DNA of 21,542 bases from a virus (Duplodnaviria > Heunggongvirae > Uroviricota > Caudoviricetes): IMG/VR virus record IMGVR_UViG_2563366943_000015; one strand, given 5' to 3'. Shown here one piece after another: positions 4,229-21,132 of the stretch (within the stretch, counting starts at the first letter, position 1; every line of letters starts with the position of its first letter). Made by a program: the position numbers and the translations under genes. The notes under the pieces are model-generated. The model searched no databases. It was not told where the DNA came from and saw only the letters and a list, made by a program, of their open reading frames with translations.

Positions 4229-4582
4229 GCCCACAAGAAAGCCCCTCCGGAGAGGGGCTAAAGCCGCGTATCTGTATCATCATGCACATGGTGCCGGGTG
4301 CCTCCCGGTAAGTTCAGCCCGGTGCCACTAAACCCGCGTCATTCTCGTTTTGATAATCAGAGATTATACCGTCACCAGTCGCCCCTCCGCTCAGGGGGAT
4401 TCACCATGCCAGTTTCTTTTAACAAACTCCCCGCAAACCAGACAACAGTCAACCGCCTGAATTGTGAGGTATTTAAAAATTTCTCCAGATAACTGATACC
4501 CGGCTAACAGTCTGGCGTTTTCTTTTTCAGCAACGGGAAAGCAACAACCACCACACCCACCAGCCGCCAATTTACCACAAAT

Positions 4583-7011: not shown

Positions 7012-7167
7012 TTACTCCTCAGGTTCGTAAGCTGTGAAGACAGCGACCTCCGTTTGGCCGGTTCGGATTCGTACCTCGCAGAGGTCTTTCCTCGTTACCA
7101 GTGCCGTCACTATGACGGTTAAACAGATGACGATCAGGGCGATTAGCATCGCCTTTTGCTGCTTCAT
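7012..7167 (-). CDS. hok: Hok-family type I toxin (HokD/RelF-like), 51 aa
   Basis: MKQQKAMLIALIVICLTVIVTALVTRKDLCEVRIRTGQTEVAVFTAYEPEE matches Hok/Gef family from memory; RBS AAGGAG 9 nt upstream; an in-frame upstream ATG at 7224 gives a 19-codon mok-like extension. Confidence 0.85.
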   Translation of the reverse strand: MKQQKAMLIALIVICLTVIVTALVTRKDLCEVRIRTGQTEVAVFTAYEPEE

Positions 7168-7727
7168 AGCCTGCTTCTCCTTGCCTTTCGGCACGTAAGA
7201 GGCTAACCTACGTGTGTAGAGCATAGATATGGCCTCAGATTAATGTTAAGCGTCTTGCCGGACGCGTAATGTTAACTGGGGCTTTTCTCTATCTGCCTTT
7301 TGGTGTTCATGCCTGAGACAGATAGCCTCAAGCACCCGCAGTTATTCTACTTAACTAAGATTTCCCCGCAAACCGTTTTTGTCCGGCACAGTAAATATCC
7401 AACTAAACCAATGGCGTTCGCTGTATTTACCGCCAGTATTCAATGCACATGACCGCCATGAACACCCCTAAAAAAAGGGCATTTATATGTCCAAACATTA
7501 ATATCAAAACATCAATTTTTTCCATATACCTTGCTGTGAAGATGATGGGCATACATGATGCGAACAACCAGAACGCAACAAACAAAAACTGCAATGCGTT
7601 TTTCATTATTCCCCCCTACAATCAATGTGCAATAACATTTAAACACACCTCAATTTGGCCGGACATATAAATATCTAAACCAGAAAAAATCACTTACATA
7701 GCGTTACAAACTCTTTAGTCTAAATAT

Positions 7728-8243: not shown

Positions 8244-8416
8244 TCATCGCCCCACTCATCACAATATGCTTCGACCGGAGTTTTTCCTGCTTCATAATCA
8301 TCACGCCATGCTTCAGCATCAGCAGCACTGCCACCACGTAACTCTGCATAGTCCATTAACAGTTCATGCCATGCTTCAAAACTGACGTTGTATTTAGTTG
8401 AACCAAAATCAGCCAT
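8240..8416 (-). CDS. Small acidic protein, 58 aa (MADFGSTKYNVSFEAWHELLMDYAELRGGSAADAEAWRDDYEAGKTPVEAYCDEWGDE)
   Basis: Not in the ORF track (under 60 aa); translated by hand from the minus strand. ATG at 8416, stop overlaps the next ATG. About 15 Asp/Glu against 5 basic residues. Confidence 0.45.
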   Translation of the reverse strand: MADFGSTKYNVSFEAWHELLMDYAELRGGSAADAEAWRDDYEAGKTPVEAYCDEWGDE

Positions 8417-8591
8417 TTTGCTCTTCCTCTTCGTCTTTTATTTCGTGATATGAGTAATTGCAGTAGTTAAAGAAAATATCTTTAGCTTCATCCTGTATTT
8501 CATCTGGTGTTGCATCATCATCCACTTCGAATTCATCCTCGAAATCTCCACCGGCTATTCCCGTTTCAATAATTATTTTGAATTTTCGCAT
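8409..8591 (-). CDS. Small very acidic protein, 60 aa
   Basis: About 20 of 60 residues are Asp/Glu (FEDEFEVDDDATPDEIQDE...KDEEEEQNG). Confidence 0.5.
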   Translation of the reverse strand: MRKFKIIIETGIAGGDFEDEFEVDDDATPDEIQDEAKDIFFNYCNYSYHEIKDEEEEQNG

Positions 8592-8684
8592 TTCACTACC
8601 GCCCTTTCGGACGGCCTCCTGATGTTCTGAGGGTGCAGAAATCCCTCCGGTTAAGGATTAAATTTTTAACAGAGCTAAATTTAA

Positions 8685-9041
8685 TTATTCAGTTCTGGAT
8701 TTTGTCGCCCTGCGTATCCGCGCTTTCGCGTTACGCTCAATCTGAATTAGCTTTTCTATATTTTTTCGCCTTTCCCGCTCCTCCTGGCGCAAGTGCCTTA
8801 CATCATCTGCCAGTCTGGTTTCTCTTTTCGCCACAGAGAGCATCCAGTCAAATGGCTCCACAACTGCACCGCAGATTTTACAGCGGACCTGACGCTCTTT
8901 TTCGTCAACCCGGACAGAGGCGTGATGACAATATGGTCTTTCCGATGGCTCATAAAGAAAATTAACCTGATTACGAGGGTCATCCTCTTTTACCGGAAAT
9001 AAAACGATATTGCTTAACTCATCCTCTGGTTTTATTTCCAT
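8685..9041 (-). CDS. Hypothetical protein, 118 aa, with a Cys/His cluster and a basic C-terminus
   Basis: CHH...C...CxxC then an Arg/Lys-rich tail; RBS AAGGAGAGG before the ATG at 9041. Confidence 0.5.
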   Translation of the reverse strand: MEIKPEDELSNIVLFPVKEDDPRNQVNFLYEPSERPYCHHASVRVDEKERQVRCKICGAVVEPFDWMLSVAKRETRLADDVRHLRQEERERRKNIEKLIQIERNAKARIRRATKSRTE

Positions 9042-9480
9042 GCTCCTCTCCTTTGATGCGAATGCCAGAGACGCGTAATGCGTGTTCTAGGTCAATCAGG
9101 TAAAGCCAACTGCCATTTTCTTTAGGTATCATGACATGTCGCTCATCTGCATTTATCGGGTGTCCATATCGAAGGTCGTAGCGAGTCGGTAATTGAACTT
9201 CCCGCGCTTCCAGTTCAGCAATACGCTTGCTCCCATCAGAGATAACGCCTTCGTAATACTCACGCTGCTCTTTGAGTTGTGATTTTGCTTCTTCCAGTCC
9301 ATCCAGCAAATCAGCGATAATATCCGCTTCCCGATGACGGATGTGACGCTTAAACGCAGCAAGAGCCGCATCACAATCCCGTTCAGCATTTGGGCTGTCC
9401 GGGATAGCCTGATACCACGCCAGCGTCGACTGATAGTTTTGTGCTGCCTCACGAAGCGCCTCATAGTTAACCTCTCTCAT
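9019..9480 (-). CDS. Phage early protein, 153 aa (possibly Ead/Ea22-like)
   Basis: ATG overlaps the upstream stop (ATGA at 9480..9477); family call tentative. Confidence 0.5.
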   Translation of the reverse strand: MREVNYEALREAAQNYQSTLAWYQAIPDSPNAERDCDAALAAFKRHIRHREADIIADLLDGLEEAKSQLKEQREYYEGVISDGSKRIAELEAREVQLPTRYDLRYGHPINADERHVMIPKENGSWLYLIDLEHALRVSGIRIKGEEHGNKTRG

Positions 9481-9773
9481 TGAGCCACCTCCTGATAAAT
9501 CACTGCATGCCCCAGTTTCTCCGCCAGTGCCAGCTCTGCCTTAGCGCCCGCTGACCGCTGCCAGCCATTCAGCATGTAAATCGCATCCACACAACGAATC
9601 ATTGCCATGCAAATATCCATGTAGTGCGGCTGTGTCAGCCCGTCCGGAAGTACTGCCGGGTTTAAGACGGTATGCCCTTCCCGTTTCAGTTCCTCTTCCG
9701 CCTTGTGAAACGCCTCACGGTTGAAATTTTCATATCCCGTCATTGGACCGGCAATATAAACTCTGACCCTCAC
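9477..9773 (-). CDS. DUF4406 / nucleoside 2-deoxyribosyltransferase-like protein, about 98 aa
   Basis: YIAGPMTG motif; GTG start at 9773..9771 with AGGAGG 7 nt upstream, overlapping the upstream TGA (GTGA). Confidence 0.5.
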   Translation of the reverse strand: MRVRVYIAGPMTGYENFNREAFHKAEEELKREGHTVLNPAVLPDGLTQPHYMDICMAMIRCVDAIYMLNGWQRSAGAKAELALAEKLGHAVIYQEVAQ

Positions 9774-10162
9774 TCCATCACCTCCTGAAAGTTTCCCCGA
9801 TAGAACGCCAGCACACGCTGCATAACTTCGCTCTGGCGGCACTCACGACAAATTATGTTCTGCCGTCTGTTGTAACGACGTATTTCTCCGTCAGGTAACT
9901 TTCGAATCAGTGTCGGGTCAGCAGCCTTCTCCGGTGTCTTACGCCATACGCGATACGCCTGCTCTGATGGAAATACCCCGCAACCAGAGAGCCAGACATC
10001 ACCACTGGCCGCAAGCGCACCAGATAAACGACGAATAGCGGTCTTACTGACACCCGTTTTATCTGCCAGTTGTCGAAAAGTTTCTCGTCCGCTCAGGCGC
10101 ACGAATTCCACAATGCGCGCCTTCACTTCTTCCCGCTCTTCTGGTGTAAATACTTTTGCCAT
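9770..10162 (-). CDS. Putative HTH DNA-binding protein, 130 aa
   Basis: ATG at 10162 with RBS GGAGG; helix-turn-helix-like segment FRQLADKTGVSKTAIRRL; CxxC near the C-terminus. Confidence 0.5.
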   Translation of the reverse strand: MAKVFTPEEREEVKARIVEFVRLSGRETFRQLADKTGVSKTAIRRLSGALAASGDVWLSGCGVFPSEQAYRVWRKTPEKAADPTLIRKLPDGEIRRYNRRQNIICRECRQSEVMQRVLAFYRGNFQEVME

Positions 10163-10177
10163 AAGCGCCTCCGGCAA

Positions 10178-10939
10178 TCACTTTTCCGATACAACACGGC
10201 GGGAAGAATCAGTAATCTGTCGAACAATATCCCGGTGCTTGTTCAGCTCCCGCAGCGCAGCACAGACTCGCTCCCACTTCTGGACATCACTTTTCGCCCG
10301 GCGCAGCTCGCGGTTAGCCACATGCAGCGATGGTAGAATCAGGTCATCTGCTTTCATTTCGGTGATCGATGGCTGTAACCTCACAATGTCTTCCACGATT
10401 TCTGTTTTCATTTCTTCCTGTGCCATCATTTCCTGTACTGGTAACGCAACACCTGCTGGCTGAGGAAAGGCTTTACCATCGGTTTCCGCTACGGATGCAG
10501 CTTCCGGCTCTGCCGGTAAATCAGCACCCGGTATGCAGTAACGAAATTTACCGCCCTGATTCACGCGAATCAGACGCCCTTTGCTGATTGCCATTGCCAG
10601 CGTTGAAGCCACTTTGCGTGATGTGATGCCGAAAAACGTAGCCAGTTCATCCGCCGTTTGTGGTCCGCGTTGTTCAATCGTTGCGGTTAAATCGCACTCT
10701 GAGATTTTCGCTACTGTCGCCGTGGTGGTTTCTTCCGGCTGTTCTTCTGGCGCTGGCTGTTCCTGCTGAACGTTGTTATCAGCCACACGCCAGGTGTATA
10801 CGCTTTTATCAACGAAACCAGCCTTTTTCAGTTCCCACAGCTCGTTCAGTACCTCTTCACGACTGATATCAAGTCGCGCAGCCAGTTCTACCGACGTGGC
10901 TTTTCCCATTGCTTTCAGTGCGTCAAAAACAGTCTCCAT
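10178..10939 (-). CDS. Phage protein with two winged-helix-like repeats, 253 aa (DUF1627-like)
   Basis: Start taken at ATG 10939 ([11 protein letters not shown]...) with GGAGG 7 nt upstream, which avoids overlap with the DnaC-like gene; the track start at 10990 is less likely. Confidence 0.55.
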
Positions 10940-10961: not shown

Positions 10962-11708
10962 TCACTTCGCAATTCCTGGCTGGACGACATTCGGACGCCA
11001 GCTCTCCCAGTTAAAATTCACCCATCGCCCGCCGTTCATGGTCATGCGATCCATAATCCTCTCGCCGAGCAATGTTTTCATGGCCTCATAGTTCAGGTTT
11101 GTCAGCATCCCCACGCTGCGCATCGACGCTGTCCGGCGATCAACAATCTGGTGCAGCACCACCTGCTCGTTTTTTGTCTCGCGCTGAATGCCAATTTCAT
11201 CAAGAACCAGCAGATCCACTTCGCACAGCTCCCGCAAAAATTTTTCGCCTGACTGCCCGTCGTCATAGCTGGCGTGCAGGGCGCTCATAACATCAGCCAC
11301 GGTAACCACAATCACTGTCTGACCGTCTTTCAGCAGGCGATTCCCGATAGCTGCCGCTAAGTGATTCTTCCCGGTACCAGGTTTTCCGCTGAACGCAAAA
11401 TTTGTACACCCGGTCATCAGTTCATCGGTGATGGATTTCGCCTGACTTAACGCGTATCGCTGGCCGTCGTTCTGCACCTGGTAATTCGCAAACGAGCATT
11501 TACGGTGCAACGGCTGGATGCCAGAGCGATTCAGAATTTTTTCCACCCGCAACTGACGATTCAGGCGGTTGATCTCCTCGCAACGTTTCTGGCCTTCAGC
11601 AAGTTGCCACTCACGCCACTCCGCAACCGTTCTGAATGGGGCGGTTACATGTGGTGGGGTCAGTCTGCGGATACGCTCCAGAACGCCGCCTGTCGCAATA
11701 TTTTTCAT
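10962..11708 (-). CDS. DnaC-like helicase loader / replication protein (YdaV-like), 248 aa
   Basis: Walker [16 protein letters not shown] and Walker B LLVLDEIG; position after the O-like gene. Confidence 0.85.
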
Positions 11709-11714
11709 GGTCTG

Positions 11715-12503
11715 TTACCCCCTGAAGCCTGGCGGGATCGCACTGTCCGGCAACGAGACGGTGTTAACCTGTCGGAGCAACGTCTCAGGCCGAACACCTT
11801 TCGGTGCGAACAAGCCCTGGTATTCATTGGCGATGCTGTGTCGAATCACCTGCTCAGGTGTAAAACCCTGCTGACGGAATTTTTCCAGTTCCCGTATCGC
11901 CCCGTTAGCGCCCTGCTCCGTTCGAATCGGTTTTCGCAATGCCTGCCTGAACTGAACCCACTCATGCCAGAGTGTTTCCGGCAACCAGTCAGGCAGCTCG
12001 ATAGCCTCCGGCTCGAATTTTTTAGACGCTCGTTTTTGGCGAGGGGGATTTAGGGGGAGATCAGTATTTATATCTTCCTCTTCCTCTTCCTCTGGTAACG
12101 CTTTTTGATCCGTTTGTGTAACGCTGGCAGCGTTACCCTTTCGTTTCAGTTCGCGTATTTTTGTAACTCGCTCGTTTGTAACCGCCCGTTTTTTTGAGCT
12201 TTTTCCGTTATGACGTTCAAAGTTAGGTAGAGAAAGCCCAACGTCATTTTCGACCAGCCATCCAACCTGAATTAACGCATCAGCAAAACCAGCCATAAAA
12301 GTGATGCGATCTATTGCACTTTTTGTAACGCCGCGAGCGTTACAATCTGCATTACCGTCTATCATTTGTTGATCCGCCCATGCCCAGAAGCGAATAACCT
12401 TCCCTAATGCGGCATCTGGATCAATATTCAGAATCTCAGCAAGCCTGAATATTTCCGGCTTATCCGGCGTAATAACCTCGAGCTTTATCCAGTTTGAAGC
12501 CAT
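11715..12503 (-). CDS. Replication initiator O-like protein (YdaU-like), 262 aa
   Basis: Position downstream of the Cro/CII-like genes and upstream of the DnaC-like gene; RBS AAGGTGA; poly-Glu linker; contains palindromic repeats (see repeat features). Confidence 0.65.
   Translation of the reverse strand: MASNWIKLEVITPDKPEIFRLAEILNIDPDAALGKVIRFWAWADQQMIDGNADCNARGVTKSAIDRITFMAGFADALIQVGWLVENDVGLSLPNFERHNGKSSKKRAVTNERVTKIRELKRKGNAASVTQTDQKALPEEEEEEDINTDLPLNPPRQKRASKKFEPEAIELPDWLPETLWHEWVQFRQALRKPIRTEQGANGAIRELEKFRQQGFTPEQVIRHSIANEYQGLFAPKGVRPETLLRQVNTVSLPDSAIPPGFRG
12118..12136. repeat. 19-bp palindrome GTAACGC-TGGCA-GCGTTAC (copy 1, inside the O-like gene)
   Basis: Perfect 7-bp inverted arms; extra half-sites GTAACGC at 12096..12102 and TGTAAC at 12162..12167 and 12177..12182. 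Confidence 0.7.
12325..12343. repeat. 19-bp palindrome GTAACGC-CGCGA-GCGTTAC (copy 2, inside the O-like gene)
   Basis: Perfect 7-bp inverted arms. Confidence 0.7.
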
Positions 12504-12580: not shown

Positions 12581-13006
12581 TCAATGCACTACGACAGAAT
12601 CGCCGGGCGACCCACCACCGCTGAAATGTGCTTTCCGGTAAACGGCCTGGACTGCATCATCATGCGCATCAATTGCCGTACTCAACGCTTCCTGCGCCGC
12701 CAGTAATGCACGGCGTTCCAGGGTATCGAAGATGCAGAGTCGGTGACGCAGCTCGCGCGGAAGAATTGCCAGAACCGCAGGGATCAGTTTCTGAATTTTT
12801 TCCCTTTGCGCTTTCGTTTCACCTTTCAACCAACGGTGATAGATATTCTGCTGATTGTTCCAGTCCTTGCCTGGTATAAGGGGCAATTCGCCGCCCCCCC
12901 CCTGGCGCAGATATTCTTCAGTAATTGCGTTAGCGACCCACGCCTGCCCTTTTTCGGCTGCCAGGGCTAACAACACTGATTCGATGTGCTTATGCCTGAT
13001 TTTCAT
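12581..13006 (-). CDS. ydaT: YdaT-like protein (CII-like regulator, reported as toxic), 141 aa
   Basis: MKIRHKHIESVLLALAAEKGQAWVANAITEEYLRQGG... resembles Rac YdaT from memory; ATGA overlap with the Cro-like gene. Confidence 0.7.
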   Translation of the reverse strand: MKIRHKHIESVLLALAAEKGQAWVANAITEEYLRQGGGGELPLIPGKDWNNQQNIYHRWLKGETKAQREKIQKLIPAVLAILPRELRHRLCIFDTLERRALLAAQEALSTAIDAHDDAVQAVYRKAHFSGGGSPGDSVVVH

Positions 13007-13245
13007 GAATCAACCGCTCCTATGCTGTTTTCGCTATGCTTACCGTCTGGGGGGAATACATCGTCAAGTCCACAATGAGCGCCAAGCCGATTAAGGGTAG
13101 AAACAATTTTTCTGCACTCCTCTAGTCCAGGGGTACGAAAATTTGCTTCGTAATTTGCCAGTCGGCTTTGTATCCACCCTAACTGAACAGCAAGTTGTCT
13201 TTGAGACAGCCCAAGCTGTTTTCGATATGTTGAAATTTTGTTCAT
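13003..13245 (-). CDS. ydaS: Cro-like HTH (XRE) regulator, YdaS-like, 80 aa
   Basis: HTH QLGLSQRQLAVQLGWIQSRLANYE; divergent from the repressor; RBS GGAGG 6 nt upstream. Confidence 0.75.
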   Translation of the reverse strand: MNKISTYRKQLGLSQRQLAVQLGWIQSRLANYEANFRTPGLEECRKIVSTLNRLGAHCGLDDVFPPDGKHSENSIGAVDS

Positions 13246-13341
13246 TGAAAACCTCCGATGACAATTTTAAACACACCTTGTGTTATATGGTCAAGCTATT
13301 TTGTGTTTTATGTAAATCACGATTCGTGATACAAGGATGCA
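13246..13341. promoter_or_regulatory. Immunity-region operator/promoter segment (OR-like) between the Cro-like and repressor genes
   Basis: Two 15-bp palindromes: AACACAcctTGTGTT (13270..13284) and ATCACGattCGTGAT (13316..13330); minus-strand -35 TTGACC with a -10-like TTTAAA/TAAAAT element for the Cro-like gene. Confidence 0.6.
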
Positions 13342-14401: not shown

Positions 14402-14627
14402 TGCTATGTGTAGTCTTTGGCGGCATCAGTTCTACTCCGTGGCTGCCCTGCCGCCCCTTTTTAAAGTGAATTTTGTGATGCAGTGAATGCGGCTAAGCGC
14501 ACGCGGCACAGTTAAAAGCATCAGTGTTATGGGTGGATTATCCGGCGTTAATTGTTAACTGGTTAACGTCACCTGGAGGCACCAGGCACCGCATCGACAA
14601 AATTCATTTGTAAAAATGGAGATAATT

Positions 14628-18990: not shown

Positions 18991-19197
18991 ATGACAAAAA
19001 TTATGAGATATGACGATGTTAAACCATGTCCGTTTTGTGGTTGTCCATCTGTTACGGTGAAAGCAATTTCAGGATATTACCGGGCAAAATGCAACGGATG
19101 CGAATCCCGAACTGGCTATGGTGGAAGTGAAAAAGAAGCACTCGAAAGATGGAATAAACGAACTACTGGAAATAATAATGGAGGTGTTCATGTATAA
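18991..19197 (+). CDS. ralR: Restriction-alleviation protein RalR/Lar, 68 aa
   Basis: MTKIMRYDDVKPCPFCGCPSVTVKAISGYYRAKCNGCESRTGYGGSEKEALERWNKR matches Rac RalR from memory. Confidence 0.75.
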   Translation: MTKIMRYDDVKPCPFCGCPSVTVKAISGYYRAKCNGCESRTGYGGSEKEALERWNKRTTGNNNGGVHV

Positions 19198-19378
19198 AAT
19201 TACTGCCACTATTGAAAAGGAAGGTGGCACTCCTACTAACTGGACAAGATATTCAAAATCTAAATTAACGAAATCAGAATGCGAAAAAATGCTCTCAGAA
19301 AAAAAAGAAGCAGGCGTTTCCAGAGAGCAGAAAGTAAAGCTGATAAATTTTAATTGCGAGAAACTTCTGTCCTCGTGA
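19190..19378 (+). CDS. ydaC: YdaC-like small protein, 62 aa
   Basis: MYKITATIEKEGG...; RBS GGAGG upstream; overlaps the ralR 3' end. Confidence 0.55.
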   Translation: MYKITATIEKEGGTPTNWTRYSKSKLTKSECEKMLSEKKEAGVSREQKVKLINFNCEKLLSS

Positions 19379-20808: not shown

Positions 20809-20939
20809 TTTTAACGTAAATGGATTGTTAAATGTATTTTGGTTGTGATATAACCAAAAAAGACCGGAATACAGAAATTCGAGTAAATTTCGGGGAATTT
20901 CGGGAAGACGTTTGCAACTGATTGATTTTAAATACAATT

Positions 20940-21042
20940 AAAAAAAGACCGAATACGATTCCTGTATTCGGTCCAGGGAAATGGCTCTTGGGAGAGAGCC
21001 GTGCGCTAAAAGTTGGCATTAATGCAGGCTTAGTTGCCTTGC
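20940..21042 (-). ncRNA. sdsR: sRNA SdsR (RyeB)
   Basis: Minus strand reads GCAAGGCAACTAAGCCTGCATTAATGCCAAC...CCCTGGACCGAATACAGGAATCGTATTCGGTCTTTTTTT, matching the SdsR sequence as I remember it, including the terminator hairpin plus T7. Confidence 0.7.
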
Positions 21043-21132
21043 CCTTTAAGAATAGATGACGACGCCAGGTTTTCCAGTTTGCGTGCAAAATGGTCAATAA
21101 AAAGCGCGGTGGTCATCAGCTTAAATGTTAAA

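Follow-up and report, generated by a model that had tools for sequence, protein, structure and literature searches.

Five accessory genes in the early operon of a Rac-type lambdoid prophage, and a DUF4406 protein as a minimal member of the nucleoside 2-deoxyribosyltransferase superfamily

What are five small and closely packed genes doing immediately behind the replication genes of a virus, and what, in particular, might be made by the one among them that begins with GTG and encodes a DUF4406 protein? The question is raised by IMG/VR record IMGVR_UViG_2563366943_000015 (Caudoviricetes), a stretch of 21,542 nucleotides that we refer to in its entirety as the window, and in which a preliminary description, made before any database search, had singled out positions 8685-10939 as a chain of coupled, nin-like genes. 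Five minus-strand genes do fill exactly that interval, and they follow, as had been described, a DnaC/IstB-like gene at 10962-11708. In the order in which they would be transcribed they encode a DUF1627 protein, a DUF977 protein, the DUF4406 protein, an Ead/Ea22-like protein and a zinc-ribbon protein, and all of the family guesses made for them (DUF1627, DUF4406, Ead/Ea22, a helix-turn-helix (HTH) protein and a Cys/His cluster) found their match in profile searches, DUF4406 with E=5.7e-38, DUF1627 with E=2.9e-87 and Ead/Ea22 with E=9.5e-12. The short answer is that the region belongs to a Rac-type lambdoid prophage of E. coli, where it forms the stretch of the rightward early operon (PR-type) that comes directly after the replication genes, and that the DUF4406 product belongs, as a minimal form, to the nucleoside 2-deoxyribosyltransferase (NDT) superfamily. 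We have next to no doubt about the identity and the gene structure of the five-gene region; the best explanation that we can offer for it as a whole, namely an accessory block of an early operon that includes DUF4406 as a minimal NDT-superfamily enzyme, seems to us evenly poised between right and wrong.

The DUF4406 gene (gene 3; minus strand, 9477-9773) has a product of 98 residues, of which residues 4-93 align with positions 2-91 of the 91 in the Pfam profile (PF14359), with a score of 129.7 bits where the cut-off is 22. This is a very large family, with 18,144 representatives of 50%-identity clusters (E<=1e-3) and members in 344 cultured phage genomes. An AlphaFold 2 (AF2) model of the protein, with a predicted local distance difference test (pLDDT) value of 90.7, is a four-stranded alpha/beta domain, and the flavodoxin-like alpha/beta fold is one that it has in common with NDT, DNPH1 and MilB. 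A profile built from the diverse family (A4) matches the T. brucei NDT 2a0k with E=1.2e-4 over its full length, and in this alignment YIAGP pairs with YIAGP and Gly76 with Gly, while Ser74 falls on the Asp that stands before G-x3-E, Glu80 on the catalytic Glu and Cys55 on the Asn of the catalytic triad. The spacing S74-x-G76-x3-E80 is also that of S98-x-G100-x3-E104 in DNPH1 and of D92..E98 in L. leichmannii NDT, the NDT and DNPH1 sequences having been checked residue by residue against PDB entries. Among 166 diverse members of the family, Ser74 is found in all 166 and Glu80 in 165; at position 6, which lies at the end of strand 1 within YIAGP, 142 members have Tyr and 18 have Phe, and position 55 is Cys in 118 (71%) and Asp in 21 (13%). 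We had also entertained D53 as the Asp of the triad and rejected it, because two alignments put the triad position at C55 and because D53 is conserved among close relatives only. The label of a deoxyribosyltransferase-like protein, under which DUF4406 had first been described, is thus borne out by both fold and profile.

How might such a protein work? The triad of the superfamily is Tyr/Asp(Asn)/Glu, and enzymes with monophosphate substrates are marked by uncharged residues at the position of the 5'-OH-binding Asp (PMC12884076). In DUF4406, the invariant Ser74 would occupy the place of this Asp of the true nucleoside transferases, much as in the monophosphate hydrolases DNPH1/Rcl and MilB, and the substrate is therefore most likely a (deoxy)nucleoside 5'-monophosphate. 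Glu80, oriented by Tyr6, would then attack C1' of the (deoxy)ribose and the base would be released, this N-glycosidase reaction yielding the base and (deoxy)ribose 5-phosphate; an enzyme expressed alongside replication genes would in this way reshape a nucleotide pool. That DUF4406 is an N-glycosidase of deoxynucleoside or nucleoside monophosphates (dNMP/NMP) acting by this specific mechanism is a proposal drawn from sequence comparison, which we put forward tentatively and rate a little short of even. Its purpose, if it is right, may be pool sanitation, base salvage or counter-defence.

A number of points weigh against this explanation. The third triad position, which is Asp72 in NDT, Asp80 in DNPH1 and Asn in TbPDT and DmtZ, is Cys55 in DUF4406, and since it is mostly Cys in the family and seldom Asp, the chemistry may differ from that of the known members; we know of no characterised member of the superfamily for which a Cys at this position has been described. 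With 98 residues against 135-165, the protein is also without the C-terminal third that, in NDT and DNPH1, completes the active site of the neighbouring subunit. The residue equivalences come from one significant profile alignment and from motif spacing, and hhalign comparisons of the family with L. leichmannii NDT and with human DNPH1, each taken as a single sequence, were non-significant and serve as a register check only, the direct sequence alignment of DNPH1 with DUF4406 being likewise not significant. In the literature the name DUF4406 is mentioned in three papers, incidentally, with no functional or enzymatic work attached to it, and the case for translational coupling in the operon, to which we come below, is one of gene geometry only. 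It should be added that PDB sequence searches with the single protein or with a shallow alignment (A1) gave chance matches only, profile A4 being the one that reached NDT, and that a match to DUF1937 (PDB 1T1J, a hypothetical protein) adds no mechanism because DUF1937 is itself of unknown function.

What the wider family is joined to has some bearing here. The DUF4406-like domains of other phages occur in fusion with dATP/dGTP diphosphohydrolase or MazG-like proteins (PHROG 12019 and 15484; BFVD), and this, like the place of the gene behind phage replication genes in other species, points to nucleotide metabolism. Among 53 long representatives of the family no recurrent Pfam fusion partner was found, and most of the extensions resemble artefacts of gene calling or assembly. 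Two labels carried by phage homologues were set aside: 'deoxycytidylate deaminase', on an Arthrobacter phage homologue, has no evidential weight given a gene of only 128 aa, and 'MazG-like protein', on a Pseudomonas phage homologue, was discounted as the product of a truncated gene call. Three homologues of about 136-144 aa (P0102, P0108 and P0113) have a short Cys-rich C-terminal tail, CxC...CxxC, that could bind zinc.

Could the protein instead be a true nucleoside 2'-deoxyribosyltransferase, swapping bases between deoxynucleosides for salvage? Fold, catalytic Glu and catalytic Tyr are all the same, and many phage homologues are labelled 'nucleoside (2-)deoxyribosyltransferase', as is PHROG 355, but these labels come from homology and not from experiment. 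What separates DUF4406 from the NDTs proper lies in the active site: the 5'-OH-binding Asp (D92 in LlNDT) is the invariant Ser74, the triad Asp/Asn is Cys, and the protein ends at residue 98, so that the C-terminal segment with the Asn that serves the partner subunit is absent. In the NDTs this segment gives both Asn123 and the C-terminal carboxylate to the partner active site. The Pfam profile Nuc_deoxyrib_tr, for its part, was reached by 3 of 53 members, and only at about 1e-4, and we consider a true transferase unlikely. It is more improbable again that DUF4406 is a sponge or a counter-defence enzyme which, in the manner of a TIR-like N-glycosidase, targets NAD+, signals derived from ADP-ribose or other nucleotide immune signals. 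Similarity to TIR is to be expected, given that the flavodoxin-like fold is common to both; it is NDT, MilB and DNPH1, and not TIR, that match DUF4406 best in structure and in sequence, it matches no PADLOC model, and the literature holds no link between DUF4406 and defence. The evasion of nucleotide-targeting defences that had been suggested for it at the outset is best called speculative, the computed results speaking neither for nor against it. A version of it, argued by analogy, would have DUF4406 act soon after induction, cleaving a particular dNMP or a nucleotide with a modified base, and so starve or destroy a host immune substrate or signal, possibly alongside the YdaW protein of gene 1, the K-12 fragment of which blocks the NDT-like toxin RcaT; dAMP depletion is indeed a phage counter-measure against Kongming, there by an unrelated phosphatase, T5 Dmp (bioRxiv 10.1101/2024.12.20.629578). 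If this were true, the Cys at the general-acid position would reflect a non-canonical substrate, and we give the idea the same low rating as the TIR-like one.

The remaining alternative widens the view from one gene to all five, which might form one functional cassette, for instance against retrons or exclusion systems, with DUF4406 possibly a decoy of NDT-like retron effectors. Residues 1-151 of the gene 1 product are 92% identical to K-12 YdaW (L086 3253-3813), and in an overexpression screen (bioRxiv 10.1101/2020.06.22.160242) K-12 ydaW scored as blocking RcaT, the toxin of retron-Sen2; NDT-like effectors include those of the RcaT type and those of retron-Sen2 and retron-Eco1 (PMC7736814). 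In E. coli, moreover, the gene next upstream of DUF4406 is usually DUF977. Lambda Ren, of whose family the DUF977 protein is a member, counters Rex exclusion. Against a cassette speaks the way in which the parts travel. Outside E. coli, DUF4406 occurs without the other four: at the loci of 80 genomes of other species a conserved partner gene was sought and none was found, DUF977 being present in 3 of the 80 and the genes for zinc-ribbon and Ead proteins in 1-2, and there the gene has no fixed neighbour, standing downstream of phage replication genes among methylases and NinB-/NinG-like genes, the latter seen only near these homologues of other species. Even within E. coli, the gene upstream in O157:H7 is unrelated, and of 5426 complete genomes 448 have 80% or more of the chain, as against 1210 (22%) with the DUF4406 gene and 3654 with any part of the chain. 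As to a decoy, the full conservation of Ser74 and near-full conservation of Glu80 favour catalysis, and PADLOC brought up no similarity of DUF4406 to retron effectors. We find a cassette very improbable, somewhat more so than a counter-defence enzyme, and infer that the five genes are independent mosaic modules and not one machine; that YdaW and a miniature NDT-type protein should meet in one operon is, given the NDT-like retron effectors, a curiosity.

Whatever its activity, where does the DUF4406 protein begin? The product is the 98-aa protein that starts at GTG 9773, 23 codons short of the longest open reading frame (ORF), as had been called. Only two in-frame start codons exist, GTG 9842 (121 aa) and GTG 9773 (98 aa), and residue 4 of the shorter form is where the Pfam domain begins. 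In 112 of 120 database homologues the YIAGPM motif lies 3-9 residues from the N-terminus, and in 76 loci of other species the start, an ATG in 61 and a GTG in 15, stands 3-10 codons ahead of the motif; many of the loci have no upstream start at all. The arrangement AGGAGG-N7-GTGA is kept in four divergent E. coli alleles, including that of an O157:H7 prophage in which the upstream gene is unrelated, and RefSeq uses the equivalent of start 9773 in two intact divergent E. coli alleles, a third having the same start in what is annotated as a frameshifted pseudogene. One might still hold out for the 121-aa form, since it is the longest ORF and GTG 9842 is a legitimate start codon, and would then have to accept a 73-nt overlap with the DUF977 gene; but the Pfam domain does not reach into the 23 additional residues, which are without counterpart in those 112 of 120 homologues, the additional 69 nt are the conserved C-terminus of DUF977 read in another frame, and the AGGAGG is correctly spaced for 9773. 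To us this form is scarcely credible. The warning that the gene is easy to mis-annotate has not proved justified in practice, because RefSeq already uses start 9773 (98-aa GTG-start product WP_001266130.1), as do GenBank records, and all 112 of the 112 motif-bearing homologues are without a long extension. A DUF4406 homologue of Pseudomonas phage Orisa01 (L085 1501-1785), which lies between replicative helicase and NinB-like genes, does appear to have been mis-called as a 42-aa 'MazG-like protein', the similarity beginning 156 nt upstream of the annotated start.

How, then, would the five genes be expressed? All are co-directional with the genes before them, which are, on the minus strand, a cro-like ORF (13003-13245), ydaT, the O-like ydaU (11715-12503) and ydaV (10962-11708), the DnaC/IstB-like helicase loader (Pfam IstB_IS21, 1.6e-19; PHROG 50, 2.9e-84; named ydaV in RefSeq). 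A sigma-70-like promoter match to the consensus, probably of the PR type, is found at 13235-13264 on the same strand, just upstream of the cro-like ORF. From the ydaU/ydaV junction onward the distances from stop to start are 6, 22, 15, -4, -4 and -23 nt. By consensus scan the coding strand of 8685-10939 contains no sigma-70-like promoter and no intrinsic-terminator-like site, and it is from this, together with the promoter-like site at 13264-13235, that the five genes appear to continue a single rightward early operon and would be co-transcribed from the PR-type promoter. Within the same interval Rfam shows no RNA family, and the alternative ORFs, on the plus strand and in the other frames, have no family match.

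Strong ribosome-binding sites had been described for these genes, and a GGAG-type Shine-Dalgarno sequence does stand a few to about 8 nt before the start codon of each of the five: GGAGGA for the ATG of the DUF1627 gene, GGAGG for that of the DUF977 gene, AGGAGG 7 nt upstream of the starts of both the DUF4406 and the Ea22-like genes, and GGAGAGGAG, located within the upstream Ea22-like gene, for the zinc-ribbon gene. The claim that overlapping stop and start codons couple the whole chain stands for two of the five junctions and fails for the others. The TGA of DUF977 overlaps the GTG of DUF4406 in a GTGA (9770-9773, minus strand), the TGA of DUF4406 overlaps the ATG of the Ea22-like gene in an ATGA (9477-9480, minus strand), and both overlaps are also present in other alleles and genomes; these 4-nt overlaps would couple the translation of the DUF4406 and Ea22-like genes to that of the gene upstream of each. 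The DnaC-like and DUF1627 genes are separated by a gap of 22 nt and the DUF1627 and DUF977 genes by one of 15 nt, and at the last junction the reading frames overlap by 23 nt. A TAATG overlap had been reported as well, and although TAATG does occur at the start of the DUF1627 gene, it does not contain the stop codon of the gene upstream.

What of the other four proteins? It had been held that none of the five has an assigned role, which is true only in part: three of them have homologues with phenotypes, namely lambda Ren, lambda Ea22 and K-12 YdaW. Gene 1 (minus strand, 10178-10939; 253 aa from an ATG) encodes a DUF1627 protein (290.7 bits, above threshold) that corresponds to full-length YdaW, with HTH-type matches at residues 4-46 and 84-130, that is, two winged-helix HTH domains followed by the DUF1627 C-terminal region. 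Beyond residue 151 the K-12 copy diverges, at a point that coincides with a rearrangement of the K-12 Rac prophage, and since only the first 151 residues, with the two winged helices, are common to both, the retron-toxin blocker of K-12 is a truncated hybrid. Gene 2 (minus strand, 9770-10162; 130 aa from an ATG) is LygF-like and matches Pfam DUF977 with E=2.1e-41, the profile being matched to residue 126 of 130; it falls into PHROG 142, 'Ren-like exclusion protein', with 1.2e-43, and by its sequence it is a homologue of lambda Ren.

Gene 4 (minus strand, 9019-9480; 153 aa from an ATG) is matched by Pfam Ead_Ea22 (PF13935) at 46.1 bits against a cut-off of 27. Its residues 65-116 also give a match to the N-terminal domain of Pfam MucB_RseB that is barely over the gathering score (23.6 against 22.3 bits), and for near-identical alleles RefSeq has the name 'sigma-E factor regulatory protein RseB domain-containing protein', which is probably spurious and driven by the coiled coil. 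Gene 5 (minus strand, 8685-9041; 118 aa from an ATG) belongs to phrog_1621 (E=2e-56), in which C38, H40, C54 and C57 are invariant and the C-terminal helix is strongly conserved, and which has homologues in 151 clusters, nearly all of them from Enterobacterales prophages. The AF2 model (pLDDT 77) has two beta-hairpins, which make up a small zinc ribbon, and then one long helix, 63-117; a fold search with it gave a TFIIB-ribbon as the sole match, which was non-significant (E=0.18), and NCBIfam and PADLOC gave no informative match for the DUF4406, Ea22-like or zinc-ribbon protein. In two database proteins (P0269 and P0270) the sequence of gene 5 is fused in frame to an Ea22-type N-terminus, with the joint '...ELEARE|IKPEDEL...', and on the strength of these in-frame fusions gene 5 is an interchangeable C-terminal module of the mosaic Ead/Ea22 family that is here a separate ORF. 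The 23-nt out-of-frame overlap at 9019-9041 (minus strand), where the Ea22-like gene ends and the zinc-ribbon gene begins, is a mosaic junction, explained by the splitting off of this C-terminal module as an ORF of its own. In P0384 the C-terminal helix of the zinc-ribbon protein occurs alone, fused to a different N-terminal domain, and the short conserved linkers 'ELEARE' and 'GIRIKGEE' resemble recombination joints of the mosaic Ead/Ea22 family (P0269, P0270, P0271 and P0384).

The source of the region is plain enough. In complete E. coli chromosomes, Rac-type prophages have 100% DNA identity to the 2.4-kb region and 99.9% identity to the whole window, and in a matching genome RefSeq lists the same five coding sequences, as DUF1627, DUF977, DUF4406, ead/Ea22-like and hypothetical proteins, with ydaV, ydaU, ydaT, kilR, recE, recT and ralR on one side of them and hokD and lysis genes on the other. 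Rfam places sok, beside a hok/mok-type ORF, at 7012-7337 of the window, DicF at 14405-14456, RalA at 19196-19374, STnc100 at 4229-4438 and the SdsR/RyeA pair at 20936-21080. This last pair is at the edge of the window and, in the matching genome, near the prophage integrase. Just downstream of the chain, strain MSB1_4I (L001 8474-9871) has an IS2 inside the DUF7167 gene, which is cut to 117 nt; at 8409-8684 of the window this gene is uninterrupted, at 183 nt, and there is an intergenic gap of 93 nt. The chain is, in short, a mosaic block of accessory genes of a common sort, typical of lambdoid prophages, and no new kind of system, and its genes, boundaries and family names are already known, since RefSeq and Pfam hold them.

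We would be the first to say that, taken by itself, the finding adds little. What it leaves is a sharpened and testable hypothesis for the very large and uncharacterised DUF4406 family: a minimal enzyme of the NDT fold, with an invariant Ser and Glu and a Cys for the usual Asp, that probably cleaves nucleoside monophosphates. Should its substrate turn out to be an immune signal or the precursor of one, DUF4406 would join a growing list of phage nucleotide-pool counter-defences.

How does all of this compare with what is known? In lambda, too, the replication genes and the late-gene regulator are separated by a set of small, tightly packed accessory genes, some of them overlapping, which is the nin region; the likeness is one of layout, however, in that none of the five chain proteins matches a lambda Nin family. 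Lambda Ren and the DUF977 protein are both in PHROG 142, align by BLASTP with E=4e-9, have in common a C-terminal ECRQS..M.RVLA.Y motif and hold comparable places just after replication genes, although the protein here is longer (130 against 96 aa), the identity is 29% and a DUF1627 gene is inserted between the loader and the ren-like gene. Lambda Ea22, a pro-lysogenic, tetrameric coiled-coil protein (PMC7093339, PMC10834534), is homologous to gene 4 in its N-terminal and coiled-coil parts (BLASTP E=8e-17, residues 1-108), with a near-identical EQREYYEGVISDGSKRIAELEA stretch; the alignment ends at about residue 108, beyond which the C-terminal domain of gene 4 is unrelated, and ea22 lies in the exo-xis region of lambda whereas gene 4 is in the rightward operon after the replication genes. 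In related prophages it is the zinc-ribbon protein that stands, fused in frame, in place of the C-terminal domain.

For the DUF4406 protein itself the comparison is with enzymes. The NDTs of L. leichmannii (1F8X) and T. brucei (PDT, 2A0K) are larger, with 135-165 aa against 98, and have an Asp where DUF4406 has Ser74 and the triad Asp/Asn where it has Cys55. DNPH1/Rcl and MilB/BlsM differ in another way: the loop after strand 1 reads GSIRGG where that of DUF4406 reads GPMTG, their triad Asp is not conserved in DUF4406, and they too are longer. A parallel in phages is DmtZ of the Z-genome phages, which has been shown by experiment to be a dAMP hydrolase/deoxyribose-5-phosphate transferase of the NDT family (PMC12884076). 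It differs from DUF4406 in its length of about 145 aa, in the Asn of its triad and in its setting, a PurZ/dZTP gene cluster of which the prophage here has no equivalent. Judged by the published description of it, however, DmtZ is, like DUF4406, a phage enzyme of the NDT superfamily with an uncharged residue at the place of the 5'-OH-binding Asp, and it is sometimes fused to a domain of nucleotide pyrophosphatase type, much as DUF4406-like domains are to dATP/dGTP diphosphohydrolase or MazG-like proteins.

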